In this document: one piece after another, positions 4,590 through 60,751 of the stretch | Position numbering within the stretch: position 1 is the stretch's first letter | How the letters are laid out: each line of letters starts with the position of its first letter | Assembly: GCA_958414825.1 (NCBI GenBank) | Contig: CATYXQ010000003.1 | Coordinates: 3,689 to 67,688, forward strand | Source of the DNA: an uncultured Eubacteriales bacterium | Lineage (GTDB): Bacteria; Bacillota; Clostridia; Oscillospirales; CAG-272 | Length of the DNA: 64,000 nucleotides | Direction of reading: 5' to 3' | Made by a program: the position numbers and the translations under genes | The notes under the pieces: model-generated | Database searches by the model: none | Seen by the model: only the letters and a program-made list of their open reading frames with translations | Told to the model about the DNA's origin: nothing

Positions 4590-4708
4590 ATTCAATAAGA
4601 GGCTTTGCCCCGTCATTCAACGTTTTCAGCGGGAGATTGTACGCCCGCTGAAAAAATGAAGCGGAACCCGCCGCCCTTAGAGGCGGGGGATATCTCAATT
4701 TCGTTATA
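4590..4708 (-). repeat. Copy A of ~117-nt three-hairpin repeat family (unclassified)
   Basis: Roughly 90% identical by eye to 22445-22560 (+) and 30818-30934 (-). Begins TATAACGAAAT and ends TTATTGAAT in element orientation. Lies just after the terminator of the minus-strand gene 4788-5804. Confidence 0.8.
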
Positions 4709-4713
4709 AAATG

Positions 4714-4749
4714 AAAAAGGGACTGCCCTTACTGCGGGCAGTCCCTTTT
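4714..4749 (-). terminator. Intrinsic (bidirectional) terminator after epimerase-family gene
   Basis: 10-bp GC-rich stem GGGACTGCCC/GGGCAGTCCC (4719-4728/4736-4745) flanked by an A5 and a T4 run. Confidence 0.7.
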
Positions 4750-22274: not shown

Positions 22275-22313
22275 GCGCCCGAAGCGAAACACTTTCGCTT
22301 CGGGGCGCTTTTT
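22275..22313 (+). terminator. Intrinsic terminator after aminotransferase gene
   Basis: About 15-bp stem GCGCCCGAAGCGAAA/TTTCGCTTCGGGGCGC (one bulge) followed by T5. Confidence 0.8.
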
Positions 22314-22421
22314 AGACAGTACAGGCTTTGAAGCCGCACGCTGTATTGGCCGCTTCGATTTCTTTGCGCCGGACGGCAATGAACGGCAGGCGGAAGTATC
22401 TGCCGATATGCAGCATGAGAC

Positions 22422-22450
22422 TTGACAAAAAACCTTTTTTTGTATATAAC
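22422..22450 (+). promoter_or_regulatory. Near-consensus sigmaA promoter reading into repeat copy B
   Basis: TTGACA (22422-22427), 17-nt spacer, TATAAC (22445-22450). The -10 hexamer is the first 6 nt of the repeat element. Confidence 0.55.
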
Positions 22451-22560
22451 GAAATGAAGATGTCCCCCGCCTCAAAGGCGGCGGGTTCCACTTCATTTTT
22501 TCAGCGGGCGTACAATCCCGTTGAAAACGTTGAATCACGGGGCAAAGCCCCCTATTGAAT
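22445..22560 (+). repeat. Copy B of ~117-nt three-hairpin repeat family (candidate sRNA / non-autonomous element)
   Basis: TATAACGAAATGAAGATGTCCCCCGCC-TCAAA-GGCGGCGGGTTCCACTTCATTTTTT / CAGCGGG-CGTACAAT-CCCGTTG / GGGGC-AAA-GCCCC. Matches copies A and C in reverse complement. Confidence 0.8.
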
Positions 22561-22600
22561 TAAGCTCTACGGTCGGAGGATCTGCAAACAGGATCTGTAA

Positions 22601-22658
22601 GGTTGGATAAGACGCGGAAACACCCATTTTATCCGGCCTTTTGTTTTATTCTTTTTTT
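22601..22658 (+). terminator. Intrinsic terminator downstream of repeat copy B / upstream of MATE gene
   Basis: 10-bp stem GGTTGGATAA/TTATCCGGCC (two G-U pairs, 18-nt loop) followed by TTTTGTTTTATTCTTTTTTT. Confidence 0.5.
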
Positions 22659-22705
22659 CATGGGAATACTCTATTCAAAGAGCGTTTTCTATAAGGAGGC
22701 GCGCC

Positions 22706-24037
22706 GTGCGTACACAGTCTGTTTATGAAAAACCCATAGAACTGCATACTGTTCTCAAATTTACGCTGCCTACCATGCTGATGATGGCGTTTACCTCGCT
22801 GTATACGCTGGTAGACGGCGTTGTCGTCTCGCGCTTTGTGGGAACGGACGCCCTCTCCGCGATCAACATCGTCTTTCCGCTGATTACCATGATAAGCGGC
22901 GTCGGCTTTATGTTCAGCACAGGCGGTACGGCCATCGCCGCCAAGCGCATGGGCGAGGGCAGACAGGCCGACGCCAATTCTTTCTTTACCCTGCTGGCGC
23001 TTGCGACCGGCGCGGTCAGTCTCCTGCTCTCTGCCGGAACGCTTGCGCTCGGCGACGAACTCTATTATCTGCTCGGCGCGGACGATTCGCTGCTCGACTA
23101 CTGCGTGCAGTACGGTCGAATCATGCTGCTCGGCAACGCCGTCTCCATGCTGCAAATTTTGTTTCAAAGCTTTCTGATTGCCGCCGACCGACCGCGGCTC
23201 GGACTGATTTTGACCGTTTTGTGCGGGCTTTGCAATATGATATTGGACGTGCTTTTCGTCCATACGCTCGACATGGGCATTGCGGGCGCGGCTGCCGCAA
23301 CCATTACCAGCGCGGCTGTCGGCTGTGTGTTCCCGATTTTTTACTTTATGTCCGGAAGGACGGCTCTGCGCTTTTCCCGCCCGGTATTCGACGGACGGGC
23401 GCTGCTCTTTGCCATGGCCAACGGCTCCTCCGAGATGGTTTCCAATCTGGCAAGCTCGGTGACAACATTTCTCTACAACATACAGATGCTCCGGCTTGCG
23501 GGCAACGCGGGCGTTGCGGCGATCACGGCCGTTTTGTACTCGCAGTTTTTGTTTTCCTCTTTGCTGATCGGGTTCACGACCGGATGCGCGCCGCTGGTCA
23601 GCTTCCACTACGGCGCCGGGAACCGGGAAAAGCTGCGCGCGCTGTTCCGCCTCTGTCTGCGGATCGTCTTTACGGTTTCGGGCGCGATGTTCCTTTTGGC
23701 CGAGCTTTCGGCGGAAAGCGCAATCGGCGTCTTTGCCGGAAACGACGCCGCCATGGCCGAAATCGGCGTCCGAGGCTTTCGCATATTCTCCGTTTCCTAT
23801 TTGCTTTGCGGATTGAATATTTTTGCCTCCGGTTTTTTCACCGCGCTCTGTAACGGGAAAGTTTCCGCGGGCATTTCGGTACTGCGCACCTTTTTGCTGC
23901 AGGTGGGCGCGATTCTGCTGCTGCCGCTGATTTTTAAAGTGGACGGCGTATTTGCCGCAATCCCCGTGGCCGAGCTTTTGACCGCTTTTATATCGGCGGC
24001 GCTCTTCGCCCGCTTCAGACGGCGGTACGGATACTGA
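22706..24037 (+). CDS. MATE family efflux transporter
   Basis: 443 aa, about 12 TM segments. N-terminus LKFTLPTMLMMAFTSLYTLVDGVVVSRFVGTDALSAINIVFP is typical of MATE/NorM. GTG start with an AAGGAGG RBS. Confidence 0.85.
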   Translation: MRTQSVYEKPIELHTVLKFTLPTMLMMAFTSLYTLVDGVVVSRFVGTDALSAINIVFPLITMISGVGFMFSTGGTAIAAKRMGEGRQADANSFFTLLALATGAVSLLLSAGTLALGDELYYLLGADDSLLDYCVQYGRIMLLGNAVSMLQILFQSFLIAADRPRLGLILTVLCGLCNMILDVLFVHTLDMGIAGAAAATITSAAVGCVFPIFYFMSGRTALRFSRPVFDGRALLFAMANGSSEMVSNLASSVTTFLYNIQMLRLAGNAGVAAITAVLYSQFLFSSLLIGFTTGCAPLVSFHYGAGNREKLRALFRLCLRIVFTVSGAMFLLAELSAESAIGVFAGNDAAMAEIGVRGFRIFSVSYLLCGLNIFASGFFTALCNGKVSAGISVLRTFLLQVGAILLLPLIFKVDGVFAAIPVAELLTAFISAALFARFRRRYGY

Positions 24038-24078: not shown

Positions 24079-26064
24079 TTATTCCCCAGAGGGAGCAAAA
24101 CGCGATTCATACTGAGACACAGGCTCTCCGAACACCGGCATTCCGCTCTCGTCAAAACCGAACTTCTGCACATGCAGATACCGCTCGCCTTTTTCGGTCG
24201 TGCGCGCATGGTAGGCTAACCAATATTCGGCGCCGTCGGGCGACAGAAATACCGAGCAGTGCCCGGGCGCGTAAACATTGTTTCCGGCGGTGAACATGAC
24301 CTTGTCATATTTTGTCCAGCTGGCTTTGGAGAGAATATCGGTCCCGGTAAACTCCAAAAGACCAAGACAATAGTAGGGTGAAGTCACATTGTTTGCGCTG
24401 TACACAAGGAACAGGCGTCCGTCATGCTCAAAGGTGTACGGCCCCTCGTTTACTTTGCCGTCTTTCGTTTCAAAATCAAAGGTCGCGCTGGACAGAACCG
24501 ATATTCGCTTGGGATCAATTGTCCAGGGGTTTTCAAGTCTTGCGATGGTGATTACGTTGCCGTTTAAAATGCGCGCGCAGGTCACGTAATTTTCTCCCTG
24601 ATAGGTGAACACATGCGCGTCGATGGCCCAGAGCGTATCGTTTAAAAAGCCTTTAAAAATATAGTCGCCGTATGGGTCGTCGCCGACGGCCTCAAGACAG
24701 AACAGACGAATGGATTTCGCCGGTTTGCCGCTCCCTTTTTCGGAAAGATCGGTCGCGCCGCTGGCGTAGATATACCATTTGCCGTCTACTTTTACGATCT
24801 CAGGCGCGTACAGCTTATGCTTGATCTCGCCCGTGTCGCTGGCCACATAAACGTCCTTGCCCTCGGCCGTGCGCAATTCGGCCAGTGTTTTTGCCCGGTA
24901 GAGCGTCACGCGGTCGTTTTTCGGCGAGGAGTACACCGCATAGTAGTACGCCGTTTCATGGTCGTATATGATGCAGGGGTCGCCGCCCGGAGTGGCTGTG
25001 CGCAGCGGATTTTGAATAAAGTCACGCATCTTTGAATCCTCATCTGTCAAATCAATTCCCACTTTGCCCTCGATATATTCTTCCGCAAAATACTGGCAAA
25101 GACGGCGCAAAACCGTATTGGAAGCGCCTCGCAGACAGACCGAGGTTCCCTCGATCAAAAGGGCGGCTTCTGTCCCGGTGAGCGAACCGGCTTTCCGGCT
25201 GATCGCGCGCGTGGTATCGCCGATGACGATTTCATTGGCCGCCGCGGGCGCGGAGTCGTCTATAACCGGCAGCTCTGTGCCGTATGCTTCTTTTACGGCG
25301 TCGGCCAAATCCCTGGCGGCAATTGTCTCAATCGCGTTCGCGCCGGCGCCGACGACAATGGTATATTCCGTGATTGGCGCCCCGCCGATGCGCAGACCGC
25401 CGGCTGAAGTTTCAGCCAAAACCGCAGCCATCGCCTGCGCGTCCACAGCGCCTGCCTGAACCAGCCGGTCGCAAAGCCTGTCCCCGGATTTCGGCGCAGC
25501 GGTCAGCGCGCGGTAGCAGATCTGAAATGCGTCCCCGCGGCAAAAAGTCGCGCCCGGCGCGCTGTTTTCGGTCAGTCCCGCAGTCTTGGCGAGCGTGAAC
25601 GGATCGCTCCACACAAAGTCTCCGCCGCCGTCGTTTGCATCCTCATACCCAAGCACGCGCAGAATGCTCGTCAGAAACGCCGCTTCCGTGATGCCTGCAT
25701 CCGTGCCGAAGCGGGTTTTGTCAATCCCCTGCGCAATGCCGTTCGTATAGACGTATCCCACATACGGCGCCGCCCATGCGGGCACGTCCGAAAACGGATG
25801 CGCAAAACTTCCCTCCAAAGCCTCGGCCTCCGCGCCGAGAAAGCGCACTACAAGCGCCATGGCCTGCGCGCGCGTCAAACTGTCCTCCAGCGCAAAATTC
25901 ACGCCGCCGTCCGCCGCGGCATAGCCCTGCACAAGTCCGAGCTTGTACAGCGCCTCGGCGCTCGACCTGGAAGCGTCCGCCGCAGCGGAAGCCGGCAGCG
26001 CGCTGAATAAAATCAAAAATGCCAGAAATACAGAAATAATTTGGATTGGTTTTTTCATAAACAC
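24079..26064 (-). CDS. S-layer-anchored glycoside hydrolase family 43-like protein
   Basis: 661 aa. Signal peptide (KKPIQIISVFLAFLILFSALPASAAA). Two N-terminal SLH-like repeats. C-terminal five-bladed-propeller-type GH43 signatures (DPCIIYDHETAYYYAVYS, YAPEIVKVDGKWYIYAS, NEGPYTFEHDGRLFLVYS). Confidence 0.7.
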   Translation of the reverse strand: MFMKKPIQIISVFLAFLILFSALPASAAADASRSSAEALYKLGLVQGYAAADGGVNFALEDSLTRAQAMALVVRFLGAEAEALEGSFAHPFSDVPAWAAPYVGYVYTNGIAQGIDKTRFGTDAGITEAAFLTSILRVLGYEDANDGGGDFVWSDPFTLAKTAGLTENSAPGATFCRGDAFQICYRALTAAPKSGDRLCDRLVQAGAVDAQAMAAVLAETSAGGLRIGGAPITEYTIVVGAGANAIETIAARDLADAVKEAYGTELPVIDDSAPAAANEIVIGDTTRAISRKAGSLTGTEAALLIEGTSVCLRGASNTVLRRLCQYFAEEYIEGKVGIDLTDEDSKMRDFIQNPLRTATPGGDPCIIYDHETAYYYAVYSSPKNDRVTLYRAKTLAELRTAEGKDVYVASDTGEIKHKLYAPEIVKVDGKWYIYASGATDLSEKGSGKPAKSIRLFCLEAVGDDPYGDYIFKGFLNDTLWAIDAHVFTYQGENYVTCARILNGNVITIARLENPWTIDPKRISVLSSATFDFETKDGKVNEGPYTFEHDGRLFLVYSANNVTSPYYCLGLLEFTGTDILSKASWTKYDKVMFTAGNNVYAPGHCSVFLSPDGAEYWLAYHARTTEKGERYLHVQKFGFDESGMPVFGEPVSQYESRFAPSGE

Positions 26065-26084
26065 CCTCCATGCTAAGAAATTCT

Positions 26085-26113
26085 ATATTATCAATATACA
26101 CGAAATTTGACAA
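26085..26113 (-). promoter_or_regulatory. sigmaA-type promoter for 24079-26064
   Basis: Minus strand: TTGTCA (26113-26108), 17-nt spacer, TAATAT (26090-26085). Confidence 0.5.
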
Positions 26114-26258
26114 ATAGTAAATACAAATTCAAAGACTTCTTGTATAATAAATATAATTGTTTGATTCCCAAAAGGCGCGGGCTTGCGGTACAAAGGACGC
26201 GCGTGCATAAGAGCCCCGGAAAGCCCATTTTTTTATATGCGCCCTGCTTTTCCGCAAT

Positions 26259-26286
26259 ATAAAAAGGCCGTCCGCAGACGGCCTTT
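26259..26286 (-). terminator. Intrinsic terminator after 31-codon ORF
   Basis: Minus strand: stem AAAGGCCGTC/GACGGCCTTT with a 4-nt loop, followed by TTTTTAT. Confidence 0.65.
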
Positions 26287-26328
26287 CTAAAAAGGAGGAA
26301 AAGAGCATAGCCCCGGCAACAGAAAAAA

Positions 26329-26424
26329 TTACAGAAATACGGAGCCCTGCGCAGTCAGTGCGACAAACAGCAAAACGGCGGCAGCCGCGACAAAAAACGA
26401 CCAAGACGGTTTCACGAGTTTCAT
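26329..26424 (-). CDS. Small hydrophobic peptide (31 aa), unannotated in ORF track
   Basis: ATG preceded by GGGAGGA with 4-nt spacing. Translates to MKLVKPSWSFFVAAAAVLLFVALTAQGSVFL (single TM segment). Followed within 45 nt by an intrinsic terminator. Confidence 0.45.
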   Translation of the reverse strand: MKLVKPSWSFFVAAAAVLLFVALTAQGSVFL

Positions 26425-26550
26425 ATTGTCCTCCCATGCGTTTGTTTCTATTCTTTAGTCGAATCCGCAAAACAAAATCCTCACCGGCAAGCCCGAATTT
26501 TTCCAAAACGCTTTTCCATCTGCCTTTTCTGCGCTTAAGCGCGCCCATAG

Positions 26551-26594
26551 AAAGCAATTGCCGGAGGCATACGTATGCCTCCGGCAATTGCTTT
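26551..26594. repeat. Perfect 44-nt palindrome (20-bp stem, 4-nt loop); probable terminator of 26708-30646
   Basis: AAAGCAATTGCCGGAGGCAT-ACGT-ATGCCTCCGGCAATTGCTTT. A second 12-nt palindrome GCGCTTAAGCGC lies at 26531-26542. Confidence 0.6.
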
Positions 26595-26707
26595 TCTTTT
26601 ACCGTACAAGTCCCGGCGCGCGCCGCCGTCCCGGAACGCATAGATTCAATCGCTTTGACGCCGCTCCGCAAAGCAGGACGCGGCGGTTCGGTTTGTTTTC
26701 CGAAAAA

Positions 26708-29700
26708 TCAGAACATGCCGCGCAGAATCAAAAGCACGTCCTGCTCATTCACTCTGCCGTCCCGGTTCAGATCCGCATGTACAGGGTCAAAGCCGTCCGG
26801 CGTGCTGCCCGCAACATAGCGCAGCGTGCGAAAAATATCGGCAAAGGAAACCTGCCCGTCGCCGGTCACGTCGCCGGGCGCGCGGTTGCTCACATACCGC
26901 ATCTCATCATCCACCCGCTCGGGTCGCGGATTTTCCGCGATTCCGGTATCTGCAAATCCGGAAATGCGTCTGCTAAGCGGCATCGCGTTCATCTGAATCG
27001 TAAACTCGGTATCCACCGGCTTCGGGTCGTCGATATGCGGCATTCCGTCCGACCAGGTCACATTCTGCATGTACATGCGGCGCATGGTATAGGCGGAATA
27101 GTGATAGGTTTTCGCGTGATAGACCGCGATCGTGTCCTTTCCGTCCGGGGAGACGGTCATGACCATCGCCCCCGGCGAATACACGCCGCTGTCATAATCG
27201 ACAAACTGGAAAGCCTCCGGGAACTTTTCCCAGAGCGACGCATCCAGGAGCGAATCCGACTGGGTTCCGTTGAACCGCATCAGTCCGGTACAGTATTCGT
27301 CGGTGCGGGTATGTCCGGCCGCGAAAATCAGCCAGAGCGTGCCGTCCGGTCCGTAGAACGGATACGGCCCCTCCATCAGATTTTTCTCATAATCGTACAT
27401 CGGAGAGGAGAAAACGACCTGCTTTGAAGCCATTGTATAGGGATTGGACATTTCGCAGACGCGCAGGCGCTGGATATGCGTCGGCGCAATGTCCGCCGCC
27501 GTATAAAAGCCGCTGCAGAACATATAGAGCTTGCCGCCATGCTCAATAAGCCGCTGCGAGAGATAGGAATACACGCTCGTATCAAGATTCTTCATGCAGC
27601 CGATCATCGTATAACTGCCGGTCGGATCGTCGGGCTGTCCCTCCCAGACATACGGCAGGCGGTAATTCGCGCCCGTTTCCGCATCCAGGCCGGTCTGCGC
27701 GGCGGCATAGACATACCATCTGCCATCCAAATGATACAGCTGAGGCGCCCAGAGCGCGGTGATTTCCTGTCCCTCCGCCGCGTCGGCCTGCCCCCAGACG
27801 AGCACCGGCTCTACCTTGCCGATGTCGCACAGATTGGCCGCCTTTGCAATCCAGATAGCCGGTTTGGATTTATAATTCTTTGAAAACGTGTAGTAATACC
27901 AGCCGTCGGCAAATACCACAGACGGGTCGGCATAGCCCGCAATCGGATTCTGATAGGTTATCGTACCCTCAAATGTCGCGTCGGTCTTTACCCTTGCGCC
28001 GAGATTCAATCTGCTCTTCGGATTTCCGGCGGCGCCGGTTCCGCGGATTTGGCCAATCCGGCTGAAGTCGCCCTTTTGCAGATCGAGCGTAAAGCTGCCG
28101 TTCAGCGTCGGCGCGCCGCCCTGCGTAAGAAGCACATCCCCGCGCAAAGCGCCGCCAAGCACCACTGCGCAAATGTCGCCCGTTTGAATCACATCCGCGC
28201 CGGGCAAACCGTAAATCGAACAGTCGATCTCGCCGCCCGTAATCAGAAGACTCGAATCGCCGGTGAGGTGATTCTGGCCGCTGATATAGACACCGCCGGT
28301 GATTCTGCCGCCGTCAATGCGGAGATCCGTGCTGCCCGTGAGCTTGAATCCGGCCGGCGTAGCGGAATATGCGCCGCCCGAAACCACGCCCCAGGTACCG
28401 CTTTGAATCACCACTTTCGTGTCGGCCTTGAGGATTTTGCGCAGCGTGTGTGATCCGCCGGCAATCGCCGGATATTTCTCCACGCGCTTGCTTTCAAACA
28501 GGCTGCACTGCATATCCTCGCCGACGGTCAGCGGATTTCCCTCGGCGGAAATGCAGGTGGCGTTCGTCGCTGCAACGACATGCAGCCCGTATAAAACCGT
28601 CTCGCCGGACAGGCGCAGTTCATCCCAGAGTTCAAGATACGCATCCGACAGTCCGCGGTAGTCAATACCCATGTGCATACTGGTGACGGTCGTTTTTTTG
28701 TCGATTTTCGGAAGCGTCAGTCCGCCGCGCAGCGTCAGAGGCCCGCAGATGACGACCGTTTTACCGTCCGAGGCTTCCACGGCCGCTTTGAGGTCGCCCA
28801 AAGGCGAGAGCGGCGAGCTTCCGTCTCCGGTGCCGCCATCGGCAACAAAAACAGCCTCGTTTGGCGCGTACCGCTTTTCCGCCGCGCTGTAGTCCAAAAG
28901 CGCCCTGGAGGAGAGCAGCCCCTCCGCCGCCGTTATGCCGAACACGCCGACCGAGCGGCCGGAAGGCGTTTTGGCCGCCGCGACCCTGCGGCTTTTCACC
29001 GTGCCGCCAAGCAGGGATACGGCGCCGCTGTCTCCGCCGGTGGAAAACGCATAAATGTCGCCGGTGACGGTTCCGGAGCGAACCACGACCGCGGCGTTTC
29101 CGCCCTCGGCCGCGACGATTTCACCGACGGAGCCTCCGTCGATCACCACAAATACCGTCTCACCCGCATTCGCGACGCCGCCCGAAATACCGGCAAATTC
29201 GCCGGATCTCACTGTGATTTTTCTCGTGCCGCCGCCCGATGTGGAAAGCGTAACGCCGCTGCCGCCGGCGACTCCCTCGCCCACCGTCAACGAGCCGGCG
29301 GCCGACAATGCGCCCTGTCCGGCAAGCTTGACCCCGTCAAGCGTCAGCGAACCCGCACAGGAGAGCGCGCCGTCAAGCGTCAGCGTAGCGCCGTAATCGA
29401 CGCCGTTCCAGTTGTCGGTGATGCGCAGAACCTTGCCGTCCGCGGCGGAAAGCGCGGCGCCCGCCGCAGAAATATCGCCGCAGAGCACAACGACGCCGTT
29501 TTCGGCGGAAAGCGTCTTTTTCGCCGTGGCGGGCGACAGGCCGTCGGCCGCGTCGTCTCCGTCCCCTCGGACAAATACGACCGGATCAAAGCCGAGCACG
29601 CGCAGTCCCTGCTCATAGTAGGTATAGTCAATGTTCGGAATCGCGTTGCCGCGCACACACGCCGCGTCAAAGCCCTCAAAGCCCCTGGAAAACTCGCCGC

Positions 29701-30646
29701 CGGTCACCGTCAGGTAAAAATCGCCGTCAATCCAGGAAGCAACCTTGTCCTGCACGGCGCCGACCCGGCTGGCGCCCGAGAACGTACCGCCGGTGATTGT
29801 GATACGGAGGTTGCCGTTTCCGTAGTAGTTGTTGGAGACGGTCGAGTTGTACCCCGGACGGCCGACGCCGACCACGGCGCACTTGAAATCGCCGCCGTTT
29901 ATACGAATCTCGGCGTCGCCGTCGAGCGCGTCAAAGCCGGTTGCGGCAATCACGCCGTTTTTCGTTGCGTCGGTGGTTCTCGACGTGAACGTGCCGCCGT
30001 TGATTTCAATGGTCACGCCGCCTATAGTTCCGACCGGCTGGGTTTCATCGTCGCGCATACTGCCGCCCCGGACATAGTTCCAGGTGCCGCTGTCAATGCG
30101 GATGGTATAGTCGTAATAGGTCATGCTCTCAGCCGTAACGCCGACCCGTCCGCCATAGGTGCCGCCCCAAATGGCAGGAGCGGAGGACAGGTAGGAGCAG
30201 GTCAGTCCCGCTCCGAACGTCACGCTGTTGCCCTGGCAGTAGATCACAGGTCCGCTGCTGTGAAAATTCAGCGTCAGATTTTCAAAAACAAGCTCGGATT
30301 TCAAATACACGTTGCCCGAAAAAATGATACCGGCCTTATTTTGCCTGACATAGTCCACGCCGCCGTACACGCCGGTTATCGTGGTCTTTCCCGCTGTGGC
30401 GCTGAGTTCCACGTCCGACCCGACAGTCAAGGGGCCGCAGACAACAATTGTACCGCCCTCCTTGCCGAGACGGATCAGCGCCACATTCAGCGATTTGAGC
30501 GCCTCCGCCGCGCTGGCGCCGGTATTTTTGTCGTTGCCGTTATCGCATACATAGAGAACCTGCTCCGCCGCCGCAGGCGTCAGCGCGCAGGTACAGAAAC
30601 CAAGAACGGATAAAAGGAGAAATGCGCCGATTCTTTTAAAATTCAT
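26708..30646 (-). CDS. Giant secreted protein: 3 beta-helix-like modules + GH43 domain + C-terminal type I dockerin
   Basis: Start set at MNFKRIGAFLLLSVLGF (signal peptide; track ORF extends to 30802). Three internal modules, each opening with a VxVxDGGxGDGSS...GGTIVVCG-type segment. GH43 signatures (YQNPIAGYADPSVVFADGWYYYTF, ALWAPQLYHLDGRWYVY, MEGPYPFYGPDGTLWLIF). Dockerin duplicated Ca-loops DVTGDGQVS / DLNRDGRVN at the C-terminus. Confidence 0.7.
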   Translation of the reverse strand: MNFKRIGAFLLLSVLGFCTCALTPAAAEQVLYVCDNGNDKNTGASAAEALKSLNVALIRLGKEGGTIVVCGPLTVGSDVELSATAGKTTITGVYGGVDYVRQNKAGIIFSGNVYLKSELVFENLTLNFHSSGPVIYCQGNSVTFGAGLTCSYLSSAPAIWGGTYGGRVGVTAESMTYYDYTIRIDSGTWNYVRGGSMRDDETQPVGTIGGVTIEINGGTFTSRTTDATKNGVIAATGFDALDGDAEIRINGGDFKCAVVGVGRPGYNSTVSNNYYGNGNLRITITGGTFSGASRVGAVQDKVASWIDGDFYLTVTGGEFSRGFEGFDAACVRGNAIPNIDYTYYEQGLRVLGFDPVVFVRGDGDDAADGLSPATAKKTLSAENGVVVLCGDISAAGAALSAADGKVLRITDNWNGVDYGATLTLDGALSCAGSLTLDGVKLAGQGALSAAGSLTVGEGVAGGSGVTLSTSGGGTRKITVRSGEFAGISGGVANAGETVFVVIDGGSVGEIVAAEGGNAAVVVRSGTVTGDIYAFSTGGDSGAVSLLGGTVKSRRVAAAKTPSGRSVGVFGITAAEGLLSSRALLDYSAAEKRYAPNEAVFVADGGTGDGSSPLSPLGDLKAAVEASDGKTVVICGPLTLRGGLTLPKIDKKTTVTSMHMGIDYRGLSDAYLELWDELRLSGETVLYGLHVVAATNATCISAEGNPLTVGEDMQCSLFESKRVEKYPAIAGGSHTLRKILKADTKVVIQSGTWGVVSGGAYSATPAGFKLTGSTDLRIDGGRITGGVYISGQNHLTGDSSLLITGGEIDCSIYGLPGADVIQTGDICAVVLGGALRGDVLLTQGGAPTLNGSFTLDLQKGDFSRIGQIRGTGAAGNPKSRLNLGARVKTDATFEGTITYQNPIAGYADPSVVFADGWYYYTFSKNYKSKPAIWIAKAANLCDIGKVEPVLVWGQADAAEGQEITALWAPQLYHLDGRWYVYAAAQTGLDAETGANYRLPYVWEGQPDDPTGSYTMIGCMKNLDTSVYSYLSQRLIEHGGKLYMFCSGFYTAADIAPTHIQRLRVCEMSNPYTMASKQVVFSSPMYDYEKNLMEGPYPFYGPDGTLWLIFAAGHTRTDEYCTGLMRFNGTQSDSLLDASLWEKFPEAFQFVDYDSGVYSPGAMVMTVSPDGKDTIAVYHAKTYHYSAYTMRRMYMQNVTWSDGMPHIDDPKPVDTEFTIQMNAMPLSRRISGFADTGIAENPRPERVDDEMRYVSNRAPGDVTGDGQVSFADIFRTLRYVAGSTPDGFDPVHADLNRDGRVNEQDVLLILRGMF

Positions 30647-30817
30647 AGCTCTATCCTTTCCAAAATCCCGCCAAACGCCGAACCGGCGTTTGGCGGACAA
30701 AAAGAATCTTTTTTCAGTCAAGCGAAAAGTGCATTTTCGGCGTGCCTGGCCGAATCGGTCTGCCGCCGAAACCGCCGGACAAACACCGACGCCCGCGAAC
30801 AAAGGGGCTTACATTAT

Positions 30818-30934
30818 TTTCAATAAGGGGCTTTGCCCCGTCATTCAACGTTTTCAGCGGGAGCTTGTACGCCCGCTGAAAAAATGAAGTGAACCCACCG
30901 CCTTTGAGGCGGGGGACATCTTCATTTCGTTATA
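30818..30934 (-). repeat. Copy C of ~117-nt three-hairpin repeat family
   Basis: About 8 differences from copy B by eye. Its first 12 nt (ATA ACG AAA TGA) are the last three sense codons and the stop of CDS 30922-35247. It lies about 170 nt upstream of the start of CDS 26708-30646. Confidence 0.8.
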
Positions 30935-33900
30935 CGTTTGTCCGCCGCAGCAATGCGGGTGAAAATGACACAGGCTTCACTGCGGATAATCTCATCGTCC
31001 GGACGGTAATTTCCCGTTCCCGAATCGCCGCCGACAATGCCCGCCTGATAAAGCTTTGTAACCGCCGCATAGCAATCCGTATTTTCGCCGACGTCCGGGC
31101 AGACGCCCGTGCGAACCGCCGCATACTCGCGCTCCGGCAGAATGGCCGCGAAAACGACCGCCATTTCGCCGCGCGTGATGTTTTGATTATAATCCGCAAA
31201 CTGCGACGCGGTAATAATGCCCTTTTCCACACAGTAACTGACATAGGGCGCGTACCACGCTTCCCCCGCCGCCGCTGCCGGTACGCTTCCGCCAAAGTAA
31301 GCGGTGTGGATATTGGCGGCCGCCGTCAGCGCCTGCGCCACCGTAAACTTGCTGTCCGGCGAGAACGCCGTGCCGCTCGTGCCGTTTGCCAGCGCGTATT
31401 CATACGCAAGCGTCACATACGGATAGAACCATTTATCCGCCGTTACGTCGGCAAACTGATTTTCATAAGTGCGCACAGGCTTAAACGGGCTGACCGCGGG
31501 CAGTTTTCCGGTTGTGTCAAAGCCGTTTATACGCTGTGAAACCGGCATCGGATTCATCGCGACGCTATGCACCGTATCGACCGGCTGCGGATCGTCGATA
31601 TGCGGGAAGCCGTTTTCGTCAAATGTGATCGGCTGCATATGCATACGGCGCATGGTAAACGCCGAATAGTGGTATTCTTTAGCGTGGTATACGCCGAAAT
31701 ATTCGCCGTCGGGCGCCCTTGTCACGACCATTGCGCCGGGCGAATAGACCAGATTGTCATAATCGGTAAACTGAAGCGGCTCGGAAAATTTCTCCCAGAG
31801 CGAGGATTTGAGCAGCGAGTCCTTTTCGCCGCCGTTGAAGCGGATGATACCGGTGCAGTACTCGTCGGTGCGCGTATGGCCGGCCGCGAAAATCATATAG
31901 AGCGTACCGTCCGGCCCGTAGAACGGGAACGGCCCCTCCATCAGATTCTTTTCGTAATCGTAAATCGGATCGGAAATCACCTGCATCGGCGTAGCCATCG
32001 TCAGCGGGTCGGAAAGCTCGCACATAAACAGCCGCTGCAGATGCTGATTAATCATGTCCTCAGGGCGGAAGCATCCGCTGCAGACCATGTACAGCTTGCC
32101 GCCGTGCTCAATAAGCCGCGGGGAAAGATAGGAGGTCACTGCCGTGTCGAGTCCCCGGAACGTCCCCATGTAGGTATAGCCGCCGATGGGATCCTGCGTT
32201 TTGGCTTTCCAGATCTGCGGAATGCGCACGTCATAGTTGCTGGTGCCGAGCGCCTCTTTGACGCCGCAGGTCGTATAGACATACCAGTCGCCGTCAAGGT
32301 AATACAGCTGCGGCGCCCAGACGCTGGTGATCTCCTGGCCGTCGTTCGACTCCGCCTGTCCCCAGACAAGCACCGGTTCGACCTTGCCAATATCGCACAG
32401 ATTGGCCGCTTTGGCCATCCAGACGGCCGGTTTGGATTTGTAATCCTTTGCAAAAGTGTAATAATACCATCCGTCCGCGTACACAATGGACGGATCGGCA
32501 AAGCCCGCTATCGGGTTTTGATATTCGATCCTGCCCGAAAGCGCTCTGGTCAGATCGACGCCCTCGGCGATATGAACGGCGGAAGAACCGCCGCCCGCAA
32601 GACCGTCGGTACCGAGAATTGAGCTTGCGCGGCTGACGTCTGAACCGGCGATGTTCAGCGTATAGACGCCGCTGAAGGTCGGCGTTTTGTCCTGCGCCGC
32701 GCGGATGTCGCCCTCAAATGCGCTGCCCGCGGCATTGACCGTGATGTTGCCGGTATAGGAAAGCGCCTCGCCCGCCATGCCGAAGACCGAGCAGGCAAAG
32801 ACGCCGCCCTCGGCATTCAGCACCGCGTTTCCGGTCAGGTTGTTGATACCGCCGACAATGCAGTCGTCGGTAAAGACGCCGCCGCGAACCGTCAGCGTAA
32901 TATCTCCGGTCAGGCGGCGGGAGGCTGAAGCGTCCGGCTTCGTGCTAAACTGGCCGCCGCAAAGACTGCCCCATGTGCCGCTGCAGACAAGAATCTCCGG
33001 ATTCTTTTTGAGGCTCGGCGCATTCACCGCCGACCCGGCAACAAGATCGGGATAGTCCTCGGTACGGTTGTCATAAAAAATTTCGCACCGGACGCCCTCG
33101 CCGACCGTTAAGCGGTTGCCCTCGGCGGAGATATAGGTATCGTTTGCCGCCGCGACGATTCTAATATCACGGATCTCGGTCTCGTCCGCAAGCGACAGGT
33201 ATTTCCAAAGCTCAATCTGCGCGTCGTCCAGCACAGCATAGTCAAGGCCGCCGTAGAAAGAAGTGATCGTTACCTTGCCGCCTGTGTAGCGAAGCGTTTT
33301 TCCGTTTTGCGGCGCCACCTTGCCGCAAACGACGATGGTACCGCCGCCGCTGAGCTTCGCCGAAGCCTCGGTGACGTCGCCCATAGCATTGAGCGGCGAA
33401 GAGCCGTCGCCGTCTCCCCCGTCGCGGACAAAGACGACCGCGCCGTTTTCATAGAGCGACTGCGCGCCGCTCTCCGTAATCGAAGCCGTAACCGACGCGC
33501 CCCGGTTTTGCAGACTGTATTTCGCGACCGTGCCCGACTTAGAGGGCGCGACGGTTCCCGCTACAGTGCCGCCGAGCAGTTCTACGCCGCCGCTCGCAGG
33601 CGTGCCCGCCTCGGCTGCGTAGACCCCGTTTGTCACGTTTCCGCCGCGCACCGACGCCATGCAGCCGCCGCGCGTACCGGCGCCGCCGCCGTAAATCGTG
33701 CCGACGCTGCCGCCCTCAAACAGTACAAATGTGGACGCGCCGCTATCGGTCACGCCGCCGCCGCGAATTTCCGAAAAGCTGCCCGAACGCACGATAACGC
33801 CGTGCGTCCCGCTGCCCGCGCCGCCGTCAAGCGACACGGCGCCCGTGCAGATGAGATTCTGCCCGGCAAGCAGATCATGCCCCGCGGCGTTAAAGCCGCC

Positions 33901-35247
33901 GTTTCCGGCAATTGTCATCCCCTCAAGGCGCGTCTCGCCGCCGAGCGTGAGCGTGCCGTCAAGGATCAGCTTTGCTCCCTCCGCGCGGTAATCCTTTCCC
34001 GCCCACGCGCTGGTGATGCGGAGCGTTTTGGAATAGGCCGCTAACGTTTCGCCGCCGACCGGCGTATCGCCGCAGACGACGATCACGCCGCCCTCGCCAT
34101 AGAGCGCCGCTGCCGCCGCGGAAAGCGTTTTCTTCGGCATATCCGCCGTTTTTCCGCTTGCCGCGTCATTGCCGCTACCGCTGACAAAAACAGTTCTCGC
34201 AAAGCCGGTCATCGGCTGGCTGATCGTCGGCGCGATGTCGGCAAACGCGGTTCCGCGCACGCACTGCGCGTCAAACCCGCCGAACGAAGCCGGAAAGTAT
34301 CCGCCGCTGACCGTCAGATAAAAGTCGCCGCCGACATAGCTCGCCACGGTGTCATGCACCGCGCCGATTTTGGCGCCGGCGCGGAAATTGCCGCCGTTCA
34401 CCGTGATATGTACGTCTCCCTTGACGTAGGCGTTGTTGGAGACGGTAGAATTATAGCCCGGGCGGCCGACGCCCATGACCGAGCAGTTAATCGTACCGCC
34501 GTTGATGATGATGTGGGCGTCCCCGTAGAGCGCATCAAAGCCCGACACGGCAATGATACCGTTTTTGTCCGGCGCCGTCGAGGTTGAGGTAAAGGTTCCG
34601 CCGTTAATGAGGATGGTAACGTCGCCTATGGTTCCGACCGGCTGCGTCTCGTCCGTGCGGAGACTGCCGCCGCGGACATACCAAAAGGTTCCGCTGTCGA
34701 TCTGGATCGTATAGTCAAAGAAGTCCGCCATATGCGCGACCGTCAGTTTTGCACAGTCGGTTCCGCCCCAAATAGCCATCGGATTTTGCGCGTACTGGCA
34801 GGTAACGCCGCCGCCCATAGTCAAATCGTTGCCGCAACAAAAGATGTTGACGCCGTTTCCGGAGGTCAGTTTGATATTTTCAAACCGGGTCGGCCCGCCG
34901 AGAAACACACTGGTCTGAATGGAAAGACGCGCGCCTTTTGCGCCATAGTCCACACCGTCCCAGGTACTGGTAAAGGTGATGAGACTGTCGCGCTTCGGGA
35001 ACGTGGCCAGTGCTGTGGAGTTGAGCGTCGTCGCGCCGCAGACGACAACGGTTCCGCCGTCCGCGCCCAGTTTTTGAAAGGCCTGCGCAAGCGTTTTTAC
35101 CGGCTCGGCGTCCGAAAGACCGGAATTTTTTGGGTCTCCGGAATCACTGACAAAAACATACTTCTGCTCTGCCGCCGAAGAAAGAGAAAGCGCGGCGAAC
35201 AGCAGAGCGGCGCAGAACAGAAGAAGGAAAATGCGTTTCAGTTTCAT
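30922..35247 (-). CDS. Giant S-layer-anchored protein: 3 beta-helix-like modules + GH43 domain + C-terminal SLH repeats (tandem paralogue of 26708-30646)
   Basis: 1441 aa. Signal peptide MKLKRIFLLLFCAALLFAALSLSSAA. Same module order as the downstream paralogue. The GH43 region is near-identical in places (KSKPAVWMAKAANLCDIGKVEPVLVWGQA). Three C-terminal SLH repeats (FADVTADKWFYPYV..., EAWYAPYVSYCVEKG..., CYAAVTKLYQAGIVGG...). Confidence 0.7.
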   Translation of the reverse strand: MKLKRIFLLLFCAALLFAALSLSSAAEQKYVFVSDSGDPKNSGLSDAEPVKTLAQAFQKLGADGGTVVVCGATTLNSTALATFPKRDSLITFTSTWDGVDYGAKGARLSIQTSVFLGGPTRFENIKLTSGNGVNIFCCGNDLTMGGGVTCQYAQNPMAIWGGTDCAKLTVAHMADFFDYTIQIDSGTFWYVRGGSLRTDETQPVGTIGDVTILINGGTFTSTSTAPDKNGIIAVSGFDALYGDAHIIINGGTINCSVMGVGRPGYNSTVSNNAYVKGDVHITVNGGNFRAGAKIGAVHDTVASYVGGDFYLTVSGGYFPASFGGFDAQCVRGTAFADIAPTISQPMTGFARTVFVSGSGNDAASGKTADMPKKTLSAAAAALYGEGGVIVVCGDTPVGGETLAAYSKTLRITSAWAGKDYRAEGAKLILDGTLTLGGETRLEGMTIAGNGGFNAAGHDLLAGQNLICTGAVSLDGGAGSGTHGVIVRSGSFSEIRGGGVTDSGASTFVLFEGGSVGTIYGGGAGTRGGCMASVRGGNVTNGVYAAEAGTPASGGVELLGGTVAGTVAPSKSGTVAKYSLQNRGASVTASITESGAQSLYENGAVVFVRDGGDGDGSSPLNAMGDVTEASAKLSGGGTIVVCGKVAPQNGKTLRYTGGKVTITSFYGGLDYAVLDDAQIELWKYLSLADETEIRDIRIVAAANDTYISAEGNRLTVGEGVRCEIFYDNRTEDYPDLVAGSAVNAPSLKKNPEILVCSGTWGSLCGGQFSTKPDASASRRLTGDITLTVRGGVFTDDCIVGGINNLTGNAVLNAEGGVFACSVFGMAGEALSYTGNITVNAAGSAFEGDIRAAQDKTPTFSGVYTLNIAGSDVSRASSILGTDGLAGGGSSAVHIAEGVDLTRALSGRIEYQNPIAGFADPSIVYADGWYYYTFAKDYKSKPAVWMAKAANLCDIGKVEPVLVWGQAESNDGQEITSVWAPQLYYLDGDWYVYTTCGVKEALGTSNYDVRIPQIWKAKTQDPIGGYTYMGTFRGLDTAVTSYLSPRLIEHGGKLYMVCSGCFRPEDMINQHLQRLFMCELSDPLTMATPMQVISDPIYDYEKNLMEGPFPFYGPDGTLYMIFAAGHTRTDEYCTGIIRFNGGEKDSLLKSSLWEKFSEPLQFTDYDNLVYSPGAMVVTRAPDGEYFGVYHAKEYHYSAFTMRRMHMQPITFDENGFPHIDDPQPVDTVHSVAMNPMPVSQRINGFDTTGKLPAVSPFKPVRTYENQFADVTADKWFYPYVTLAYEYALANGTSGTAFSPDSKFTVAQALTAAANIHTAYFGGSVPAAAAGEAWYAPYVSYCVEKGIITASQFADYNQNITRGEMAVVFAAILPEREYAAVRTGVCPDVGENTDCYAAVTKLYQAGIVGGDSGTGNYRPDDEIIRSEACVIFTRIAAADKRITK

Positions 35248-53545: not shown

Positions 53546-54223
53546 ATGAAAGATCTTACCTGCTATGTACGAGGTAATCTGCTGGAAAAGTTTGAATTTC
53601 AAAATTACGGACACGCTTTAGAAATATTAAACGAAGCGTTTCCAAATGAATGGAATGAAATTCAGGACTGTTTGGAACAGTTATTCATTTCGATAGATGA
53701 TTTAAAAGCCGCCGGCGGGAATGAAACCGCAATACCGAAAAAATTTGACGACATTTTATATCCTCTTGGATGGCAGGAAATCAGAATTACCGGCGATTTA
53801 CTGGTAAGACTTTACCCGCGCAAAGCAAATCAAAGAGGACGTTTTGCCGACAAACCGTTTGACGAGAAAATAATCGCAGGATATATAGACGGCCACAACA
53901 TTGATTTTGTCAAAAGCAGAGTTGCCTTCGACTTGGAATGGAACAGCAAAGACCAAACATTTGATCGTGATTTATTGGCCATGCGCACTTATTTTGACTG
54001 CGGTTTGATCGAAGTCGGAATCATTGTAACCAGATCAAAAGAATTAAACGACATTTTCAAAGAGATTACAGACGAAAACTGCAAACCAATTATGCCGAAA
54101 TATGGAGCAAGTACAACGTGGATGGGAAAATTGGAATACAGGCTGAAATCCCGCAGAAACGGCGGCTGTCCTATTTTAGCCATTGGGATCAGAAAGCCTT
54201 GCATAGAAGGGTACTCGCTATGA
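53546..54223 (+). CDS. Type II restriction endonuclease, BglII/BstYI/BamHI-like fold
   Basis: 225 aa, low GC. N-terminal NYGHALEILNEAFPNEWNEIQDCL resembles BglII YNHADEILNPQLWKEIEETL. Candidate catalytic block IDFVKSRVAFDLEWN followed by IEVGIIVTRS parallels BglII DIDF...LVEVQF...VAIIITK. ATGA overlap with the methyltransferase gene. Confidence 0.55.
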   Translation: MKDLTCYVRGNLLEKFEFQNYGHALEILNEAFPNEWNEIQDCLEQLFISIDDLKAAGGNETAIPKKFDDILYPLGWQEIRITGDLLVRLYPRKANQRGRFADKPFDEKIIAGYIDGHNIDFVKSRVAFDLEWNSKDQTFDRDLLAMRTYFDCGLIEVGIIVTRSKELNDIFKEITDENCKPIMPKYGASTTWMGKLEYRLKSRRNGGCPILAIGIRKPCIEGYSL

Positions 54224-54870
54224 CAAACGAAATTTTTGAAGCAACGGTAGAAAACTTCAGGCGTTATACCCATGGAAAGAAGTACAAAACAATTTATGCG
54301 GATCCCCCGTGGCAATTTCAAAATCGAACGGGGAAAGTAGCGCCTGAACACAAACGGCTTTCCCGATACGGAACCATGACGCTGTCTGAAATTATGCAAA
54401 TGCCTGTCTCAGAGGTTGCAGATGAAAAAAGCCATTTATATTTGTGGGTTCCCAACGCTCTGCTGCCGGAAGGCTTAGCGGTTATGGAGGCATGGGGATT
54501 TGAATACAAAACGAATCTTGTATGGGAAAAAATCCGAAAAGACGGTATGCCGGACGGAAGAGGCGTCGGATTTTACTTTAGAAATGTGACCGAAATTCTT
54601 TTATTCGGAATCAAAGGCGATAAAAACCGAACGCTTGATCCGGGAAGATCCCAGGTAAATCTAATCCGCGCCGCTAAAAGAGAACATTCAAGAAAGCCGG
54701 ACGAATTTATTCCCTTGATTGAAAGCTGTTCATCTCCGCCGTTTTTAGAATTGTTTGCGCGGGGAAACAGAAGCGGATGGGATATGTGGGGCAATCAGGC
54801 AACAGACAGTTATGAACCGACATGGAACACATATGCCAATCACACAGTTCCGACAGCCAAACCCGAATGA
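54220..54870 (+). CDS. MT-A70 family DNA methyltransferase (N6-adenine or N4-cytosine)
   Basis: Start at MTNEIFEA (ATG overlaps the upstream TGA). Catalytic DPPW motif (IYADPPWQF). SAM-binding region HLYLWVPN. Low GC. Confidence 0.8.
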   Translation: MTNEIFEATVENFRRYTHGKKYKTIYADPPWQFQNRTGKVAPEHKRLSRYGTMTLSEIMQMPVSEVADEKSHLYLWVPNALLPEGLAVMEAWGFEYKTNLVWEKIRKDGMPDGRGVGFYFRNVTEILLFGIKGDKNRTLDPGRSQVNLIRAAKREHSRKPDEFIPLIESCSSPPFLELFARGNRSGWDMWGNQATDSYEPTWNTYANHTVPTAKPE

Positions 54871-60534: not shown

Positions 60535-60608
<74 letters not shown>

Positions 60609-60674: not shown

Positions 60675-60751
60675 TGGTGGACCATCTAGGACTCGAACCT
60701 AGGACCGACCGGTTATGAGCCGGTAGCTCTAACCAACTGAGCTAATGGTCC
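60675..60751 (-). tRNA. tRNA with CAT anticodon, most like tRNA-Ile2 (lysidine) rather than elongator Met
   Basis: GGACCATTAGCTCAGTTGGTTAGAGCTACCGGCTCATAACCGGTCGGTCCTAGGTTCGAGTCCTAGATGGTCCACCA. Cloverleaf is complete. The body resembles the Bacillus tRNA-Ile(CAU) as I recall it. Confidence 0.85.

Follow-up and report, generated by a model that had tools for sequence, protein, structure and literature searches.

Small hairpin-rich interspersed repeats are a well-known kind of bacterial sequence. In enterobacteria, the REP/BIME and ERIC families are intergenic repeats carried within mRNAs, where their hairpins stabilise 3′ ends or terminate transcription weakly, and the REPs themselves are units of ~35 nt whose GTAG head is conserved and is recognised by RAYT. 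A quite different organisation is that of the integron attC sites, whose RYYYAAC and GTTRRRY cores pair in a single imperfect hairpin and which occur in cassette arrays. Other elements, the PATEs, are ends-only derivatives of IS200/IS605 (PMC7290912; PMC3119063). The pneumococcal SPRITE is a terminator-like interspersed repeat, AT-rich (28% GC) and built on one 18-bp duplex, with virtually no terminal inverted repeat (TIR), no known target-site duplication (TSD) and no insertion sequence (IS) partner, whose density differs between sister species (PMC3049150). In Neisseria, a Correia element lies downstream of the promoter of the mtrCDE efflux pump, and the terminal inverted repeats of this family are 26 bp long and accompanied by a TA duplication and an IHF site (PMC10969869).

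Here we describe a family of this kind from an uncultured lineage of human-gut Clostridia, found as three copies of a ~117-nt repeat in a 64-kb stretch of DNA (the window). The family is uncatalogued, and no prior description of the repeat was found in the literature. Set beside the SPRITE by description, it is likewise a non-coding Firmicute repeat of less than 200 bp, found near the 3′ ends of genes, in which a U-rich tract comes after a long stem (in this case T6 after a 49-nt hairpin), with practically no TIR, with neither a demonstrable TSD nor an identified IS partner, and with a difference in presence or density between sister species; it departs from the SPRITE in its 50% GC, in its three hairpins with a bipartite first stem, in the finding of an empty site and in the location of one copy within a promoter. 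With the Correia elements it shares a multicopy occurrence at ~100-200 bp, a TATA-like end able to contribute a -10 box and the capacity to sit between a promoter and efflux-pump genes (mtrCDE in that case), where it may alter expression and be co-transcribed as structured RNA, but it comes from another phylum and has neither the terminal inverted repeats nor the TA duplication. As in PATEs, there is no TIR and no target duplication, hairpins are conserved near both ends, the architecture is strand-specific and precise presence/absence differences are possible; unlike in PATEs, only a TA is shared 5′ of the repeat in place of a conserved tetra- or pentanucleotide, and the left and right hairpins are mutually unrelated. 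The REP/BIME and ERIC repeats resemble it in being intergenic and transcribed within mRNAs, with hairpins acting as 3′-end stabilisers or weak terminators, but they belong to other phyla and have no sequence similarity to it, and the REP architecture with its GTAG head is not seen here. An integron attC site was rejected: the ends of the repeat, (A)TATAAC and ATTGAAT, do not pair, its three hairpins are separate and its copies are dispersed. In kind, the closest described sequences would be terminator-like repeats such as the SPRITE or TIR-less, hairpin-ended elements such as the PATEs, and we consider it probable that the repeat represents a family, uncatalogued so far, of small interspersed repeats that are non-coding, rich in hairpins, non-autonomous and either mobile or formerly mobile, that is, MITEs in the broad sense of the term.

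Three copies with a common fold

The three units (Table 1), each of 116-119 nt, are 94.0%, 91.5% and 89.9% identical in pairwise comparisons, and these 7-12 differences agree with the count made in a preliminary description of this DNA, whose positions for the copies were exact. An nhmmer search of the window, with a profile built from the three copies, retrieves each of them with an E value of 1e-40 to 2e-41, and neither this profile nor a covariance model detected further copies, full or partial, in the window. An invariant 18-mer, TTTTCAGCGGGCGTACAA, occurs exactly three times against 0.12 occurrences expected from shuffles when up to 3 mismatches are allowed, and a 27-mer of the repeat occurs three times against 0.00 expected in shuffles. 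The alignment of the three copies places the boundaries of the unit at TATAACGAAAT ... TTATTGAA(T), outside of which the flanking DNA is unrelated between copies. All copies start with the -10-like TATAAC, and the 3′ third of the repeat contains TTGAA three times; an outward promoter in the right end (TTGAAT-N17-TATTGA) was rejected as too poor and was uncalled by the promoter scan. The repeat has a GC content of 50%, in a window of ~57% GC. A coding sequence was discarded, the reading frames across the repeat being interrupted by indels and stops, and so was an assembly artefact, as the same copies were found across many independent assemblies.

Table 1. Positions in the window of the repeat copies, of the hairpins of copy A and of the MATE locus
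Feature	Position	Strand	Length	Description
MATE promoter	22422..22450	+		-35 TTGACA 22422-27, 17-nt spacer, -10 TATAAC 22445-50
Copy A	22445..22560	+	116 nt	In the -10 region of the MATE promoter; 129.6 bits
Hairpin 1, copy A	22451..22499	+		-24.2 kcal/mol, z = -4.8
Hairpin 2, copy A	22498..22527	+		TTTTCAGCGGG / loop CGTACAAT / CCCGTTGAAAA
Hairpin 3, copy A	22529..22560	+		Core GGGGC-AAA-GCCCC 22539-22551, AU-rich extended lower stem, right boundary TATTGAAT
MATE 5′ leader	22561..22705	+		Hairpin 22599-22640, U-rich tail to 22658, AAGGAGG before GTG start
MATE efflux transporter gene	22706..24037	+		Downstream of the disrupted promoter
Copy B	4590..4708	-	119 nt	Between convergent genes, past the epimerase terminator
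Copy C	30818..30934	-	117 nt	Between two co-directional GH43 genes

Searches of the databases returned no known family, in line with the earlier impression that the repeat belongs to no recognised RNA class. At gathering thresholds, Rfam finds only two tRNAs in the window, at 60538-60608 and 60678-60751 (-), and a permissive scan of 22380-22720 gave a best E value of 1.6, with 17 bits against a cut-off of 53 bits. No BLAST match to the repeat was obtained in plasmid and phage collections. The six-frame peptides of the three copies, joined in a chimeric query aimed at spurious ORFs called across other copies of the repeat, had no match in a database of 5.8 billion proteins. In IMG/VR, the pattern of hairpin 2 retrieved three weak palindromic look-alikes (14-15 bits) that were taken as chance, and the motif of hairpin 3 had no match.

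The three-hairpin fold proposed initially is found in every copy, with minimum free energies of -46 to -56 kcal/mol and z values of -4.7 to -6.9; 0 of 200 shuffles folded as stably as the repeat copies, and the opposite strand gives a slightly weaker fold than the element strand. Hairpin 1, which begins 6 nt from the left end, is a bipartite structure of 49 nt made of an AU-rich lower stem (GAAAUGAAG/CUUCAUUUU) and a GC-rich upper stem from which a C bulges, and in copy A it runs into T6 at 22496-22501. On its predicted fold this arrangement is terminator-like; the AU-rich base is atypical of efficient intrinsic terminators, and a simple terminator scan left the full hairpin 1 uncalled. Hairpin 2 is the best-conserved part of the family, common to the two relatives found outside this genome (L025 and L018, see below), and ~9 nt separate the core of hairpin 3 from the right end.

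It had also been suggested that the differences between copies either keep pairing or fall in loops, as would be expected for a structure under selection. Some of the substitutions are indeed G-U-compatible, but several others break pairs, namely G12>U in copy B, two changes in the third hairpin of copy A (G>C and U>C), and a T>A strain variant. Among seven distinct sequences, 94.7% of the cells pair and two cells are compensatory, with no significant covariation: 129 of 500 column shuffles equal the observed alignment, and the claim of selection is not sustained by it. The G-U-compatible substitutions, six on the element strand versus three on the opposite strand, may lean, weakly and non-significantly, toward a constraint on the element strand at the level of RNA or of single strands. 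Because the copies are 90-94% identical, common recent descent explains the conserved hairpins equally well.

The MATE promoter and its counterpart without the repeat

An aspartate aminotransferase, a MATE transporter, an HPr kinase and an epimerase are encoded around the repeat, along with large GH43 enzymes that carry SLH or dockerin modules. Contigs L028-L036 were reached through homologues of the aminotransferase (98% protein identity). Their ~92% DNA identity to the window marks them as a sister species, and the repeat is absent from all of them. In the sister species the spacer between the aminotransferase and MATE genes reads ...GGGACTTGACAAAACGCTTTTTTCTGTATAGAATAGACTTCACGGTCGGAGGATCTGCAAACAGG..., and in the window ...GAGACTTGACAAAAAACCTTTTTTTGTATA[TAACGAAATG...CCCCCTATT]GAATTAAGCTCTACGGTCGGAGGATCTGCAAACAGG... 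The promoter scan finds in the sister species (L028-L035) a TTGACA-N17-TAGAAT promoter with 11 of 12 matches, and the MATE gene follows directly downstream of its leader, without the repeat. From ACGGTCGG to the GTG start, a stretch of ~140 nt, the window and the sister species are ~95% identical, and this conserved leader includes the hairpin GGUUGGAUAAGAC...GUUUUAUCCGGCU with its U-rich tail. Since the sister species has both signals and no repeat, the promoter and the downstream terminator are those of the MATE gene itself, older than the repeat.

These observations change the interpretation of copy A, which had been described as a promoter-to-terminator unit giving a discrete RNA of ~200 nt, upstream of a MATE gene lacking a promoter of its own. 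The proposed TTGACA-N17-TATAAC sequence is there, but the consensus promoter scan refuses TATAAC, in which the T at hexamer position 6 is absent, and the promoter predates the repeat. Likewise, a hairpin with a U-rich tail does lie past the repeat, at 22599-22658, but it belongs to the MATE leader. Both signals are present without the repeat in the sister species, where TTGACA-N17-TAGAAT stands ahead of MATE, so that neither the ~200-nt unit nor the promoterless MATE gene can be maintained: the apparent small RNA unit is an artefact of the repeat landing between the MATE promoter and the leader terminator.

The repeat at this site is thus best read as a lineage-specific insertion into the MATE -10 box, by which an ancestral TA|GAAT would have become TA[TAAC...TATT]GAAT. 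At the filled site the 17-nt spacing is kept and the hexamer changes from TAGAAT to TATAAC, the last four bases of the latter coming from the repeat. The junction can be read either as 110 nt placed between TA and GAAT or as a 116-nt unit in place of TAGAA, and it is ambiguous by a few bases because the target TA|GAAT resembles the ends of the element, TA...GAAT. The flanks add to this ambiguity, as those of the MATE empty site differ from the window by several substitutions and one indel and those of the epimerase site (see below) do not align. Formally, a loss in the sister species could be invoked instead of a gain here.

As for its consequences, the insertion would probably weaken the MATE promoter, because the rebuilt -10 box lacks the conserved last T, and would add ~100 nt of structured RNA to the MATE 5′ leader. 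A transcript starting ~7 nt past the hexamer, near 22457, would miss the 5′ side of hairpin 1's lower stem; when folded from 22458, the upper stem forms alone, at -15.9 versus -24.2 kcal/mol, with ~13 unpaired nt before the U-run. Termination at copy A is predicted to be unlikely, as the T6 run would no longer abut a stem in the shortened transcript. The locus offers a clean natural case of an efflux-pump promoter whose -10 box has received a small repeat, the site being filled in one species and empty in its sister, and such insertions can alter drug-efflux expression, fragment metagenome assemblies and pass for small RNA genes or riboswitches.

The repeat itself opens no new biological question, and the conserved, terminator-containing MATE leader may be the more interesting regulatory element of the two. 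This leader (window 22561-22705; L031 11573-11716) contains a direct repeat, GGATCTGCAAAC AGGATCTGTAAGG, and an AAGGAGG-N6-GTG start, had no Rfam match in the permissive scan of 22380-22720 and, judging from its modelled hairpin and tail, looks like an attenuator or a riboswitch-type leader. The spacer between the aminotransferase and MATE genes (window 22305-22421; L028 11411-11845) is variable between lineages: a minus-strand gene for a 144-aa GNAT acetyltransferase is present in some of the sister-species spacers and absent in others, and the spacer of the window has only ~120 nt, partly related to that of the sister species.

The remaining copies and the relatives outside the genome

The epimerase gene has a canonical terminator of its own (4749-4715); copy B starts 6 nt past its T-run, is redundant with it and is present in all the same-species contigs examined. 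Homologues of the epimerase (96% protein and ~90-94% DNA identity) led to the sister-species contig L050, which tracks the window through the epimerase terminator; homology ends at window position 4715, and unrelated sequence without the repeat follows. The contig ends 27 nt beyond this empty site, and its far junction is unalignable. Both orthologous sites that could be tested, at the MATE and epimerase genes, are therefore empty in the sister species. The end of L050 (11083-11109) lies in a small hairpin, CGCAAAACC/GGTTTTGCG, and the assembly break could reflect strain heterogeneity at this spot.

The site of copy C is in an island of GH43 genes that is absent from the sister species at this position. 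The notion that all copies are intergenic applies to copies A and B only, as copy C contains the TGA (30924-30922) that closes the upstream 1441-aa GH43/SLH ORF; the co-orientation with the gene on the 5′ side, also pointed out previously, is borne out in the three copies. The GH43/SLH protein has the C-terminus ...DKR-ITK*, whose last three codons, together with the TGA, come from the repeat (window 30922-30934), so that the insertion would have replaced the original C-terminus of the protein, and copy C provides the only terminator-like structure after this ORF. At copies B and C, which lie downstream of genes, the complete hairpin 1 with U6 may act as a terminator or as a 3′-end stabiliser. 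No -35 box was found upstream of either of them, nor any promoter-like site in the promoter scan. The three large GH43 genes (window 24079-35247), whose products bear SLH or dockerin modules and of which the two largest are missing there in the sister species, suggest a cell-surface or cellulosome-like hemicellulase cluster in human-gut Clostridia.

By exact-protein look-ups, the locus was found only in metagenome assemblies and MAGs, human-gut samples included. Contigs of the same species, at 99.5-99.8% identity to the window, carry the repeat at the same three sites, and this lack of presence/absence polymorphism among the strains sampled gives no sign of current mobility. Short-read contigs from Logan break inside the repeat, which points to multicopy behaviour. 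Exact 18-mer scans covered the GTDB representative genomes, the JGI metagenomes and IMG/VR, and nearly all of the matches were set aside as chance, a second motif being missing, with two real exceptions, both on unrelated metagenome contigs. In one of them, the 1.1-kb contig L025, the element is cut off by the contig end; it aligns to model positions 1-83 with 83.8 bits and, in hairpin 1, has a compensatory double change, G-C>C-G, of the lower stem. The other one, L018, scores 47.3 bits and comes from a Firmicute of 41% GC, where it sits amid housekeeping genes and, like copy B, directly follows the terminator T-run of a gene; it retains TATAACGAAA, the entire hairpin 2 with its loop and a diverged hairpin 3, and has lost ~30 nt of hairpin 1. 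Within ~650 kb of fetched loci, from the sister species and from relatives at 70-80% protein identity, the covariance model found no additional or diverged copies. Altogether, the family is sampled by two diverged fragments in addition to the three sites of this species, and over these few copies the types of site are diverse: between convergent genes (B), over the end of a CDS (C), past a terminator (L018) and in a promoter (A).

A probable mobile element and the competing explanations

Among the three candidate explanations offered at first, a multicopy small RNA family, a mobile terminator/promoter cassette and a non-autonomous element, the last one fits best, and the idea of a promoter-to-terminator unit fails. 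The repeat is short (116-119 nt), non-coding and multicopy (three copies in 64 kb plus two relatives), as classical MITEs are. No terminal inverted repeats join the two ends in any of the copies, which hold only the three internal hairpins. The flanks read TTGTA/TAAGC, CATTT/CCGTT and AAACG/(A)ATAA, with no target-site duplication either shared or per copy, and none was seen in the empty-site comparison. A TA is shared upstream of TAACG in the five left flanks available (TATA, TTTA, CGTA, CTTA and TTTA), and the empty site reads TA|GAAT. As hairpins are found near both ends, with no TIR and no target duplication, single-strand transposition of the HUH/Y1, IS200/IS605-like type, supplied in trans, would be the most plausible route of movement, and by analogy the repeat may be of the IS200/IS605 'PATE' type, with subterminal hairpins at both ends. 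No partner with matching ends, encoding a Y1 (HUH) TnpA or a TnpB, was found in the fetched loci.

An explanation that seems to us unlikely is that the repeat has been domesticated as a cis-acting module, a portable terminator or insulator made of hairpin 1 and U6 with two accessory hairpins, which would be kept for ending or stabilising the transcript of its 5′ neighbour, the copy in the MATE promoter being an accidental or regulatory by-product. In this line, each of the three copies points the same way as its upstream gene, although with one of them between convergent genes this would occur by chance about 1 time in 4. Copy C supplies the GH43/SLH ORF with both its stop codon and its only terminator-like structure, and L018 and copy B are also at gene 3′ ends, but these two lie directly past good terminators and are redundant. 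The stability of hairpin 1 (-24 kcal/mol), followed by T6, and the precedent of the SPRITE (PMC3049150) argue for such a role; against it, the lower stem adjoining the U-run is AU-rich, L018 kept hairpin 2 but lost most of hairpin 1, and a terminator at the position of copy A would be harmful.

We are more than doubtful about a bolder version of the mobile reading, in which the repeat would represent an undescribed class of TIR-less and TSD-less structured mobile modules that spread horizontally among distant Clostridia (57% and 41% GC). In such a class, the invariant core of hairpin 2, TTTTCAGCGGG-CGTACAAtCT-CCCGCTGAA, would be the recognition site of a trans-acting enzyme or RNA, and insertion at TA|GAA-like sites (-10 boxes and terminator tails) would rewire promoters and terminators.

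Improbable, too, is a multicopy family of small RNA genes, each copy being an independent promoter-to-terminator unit for a trans- or cis-acting RNA. The very stable three-hairpin fold of the element strand, the compensatory pair of L025, the six-versus-three strand bias of the G-U-compatible substitutions, the loop and stem of hairpin 2 kept even in a 41% GC host and the -10-like TATAAC that opens all copies are what such a family would display. However, the sole -35/-10 pair, that of copy A, predates the element and exists without it in the sister species, copies B and C have no -35 box, what was taken for the terminator belongs to the conserved MATE leader, a stop codon lies within copy C, 129 of 500 shuffles equal the observed covariation, and there is no match in Rfam.

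It is very improbable that the repeat is a classical MITE descended from an insertion sequence of the TA-targeting (IS630/Tc1-like) type or of another DDE type: its size, its multicopy intergenic spread, the AT-rich insertion points, the TA ahead of TAACG in 5 of 5 copies and the TA that follows copy A would fit, but a DDE-type MITE fails for the repeat on both TIR and TSD, the TA duplication being clean in 1 of 3 copies only and requiring an extra deletion of 4-5 nt at the empty site, and no DDE transposase was found among the ORFs tested. In this last respect, the earlier remark that no transposase is nearby stands, none having been detected among the window ORFs scanned with Pfam, six of which had no Pfam match. 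Elsewhere in the window (53546-54870), a gene for a BglII-type restriction endonuclease adjoins one for an MT-A70 methyltransferase, and the two probably form a type II restriction-modification system.
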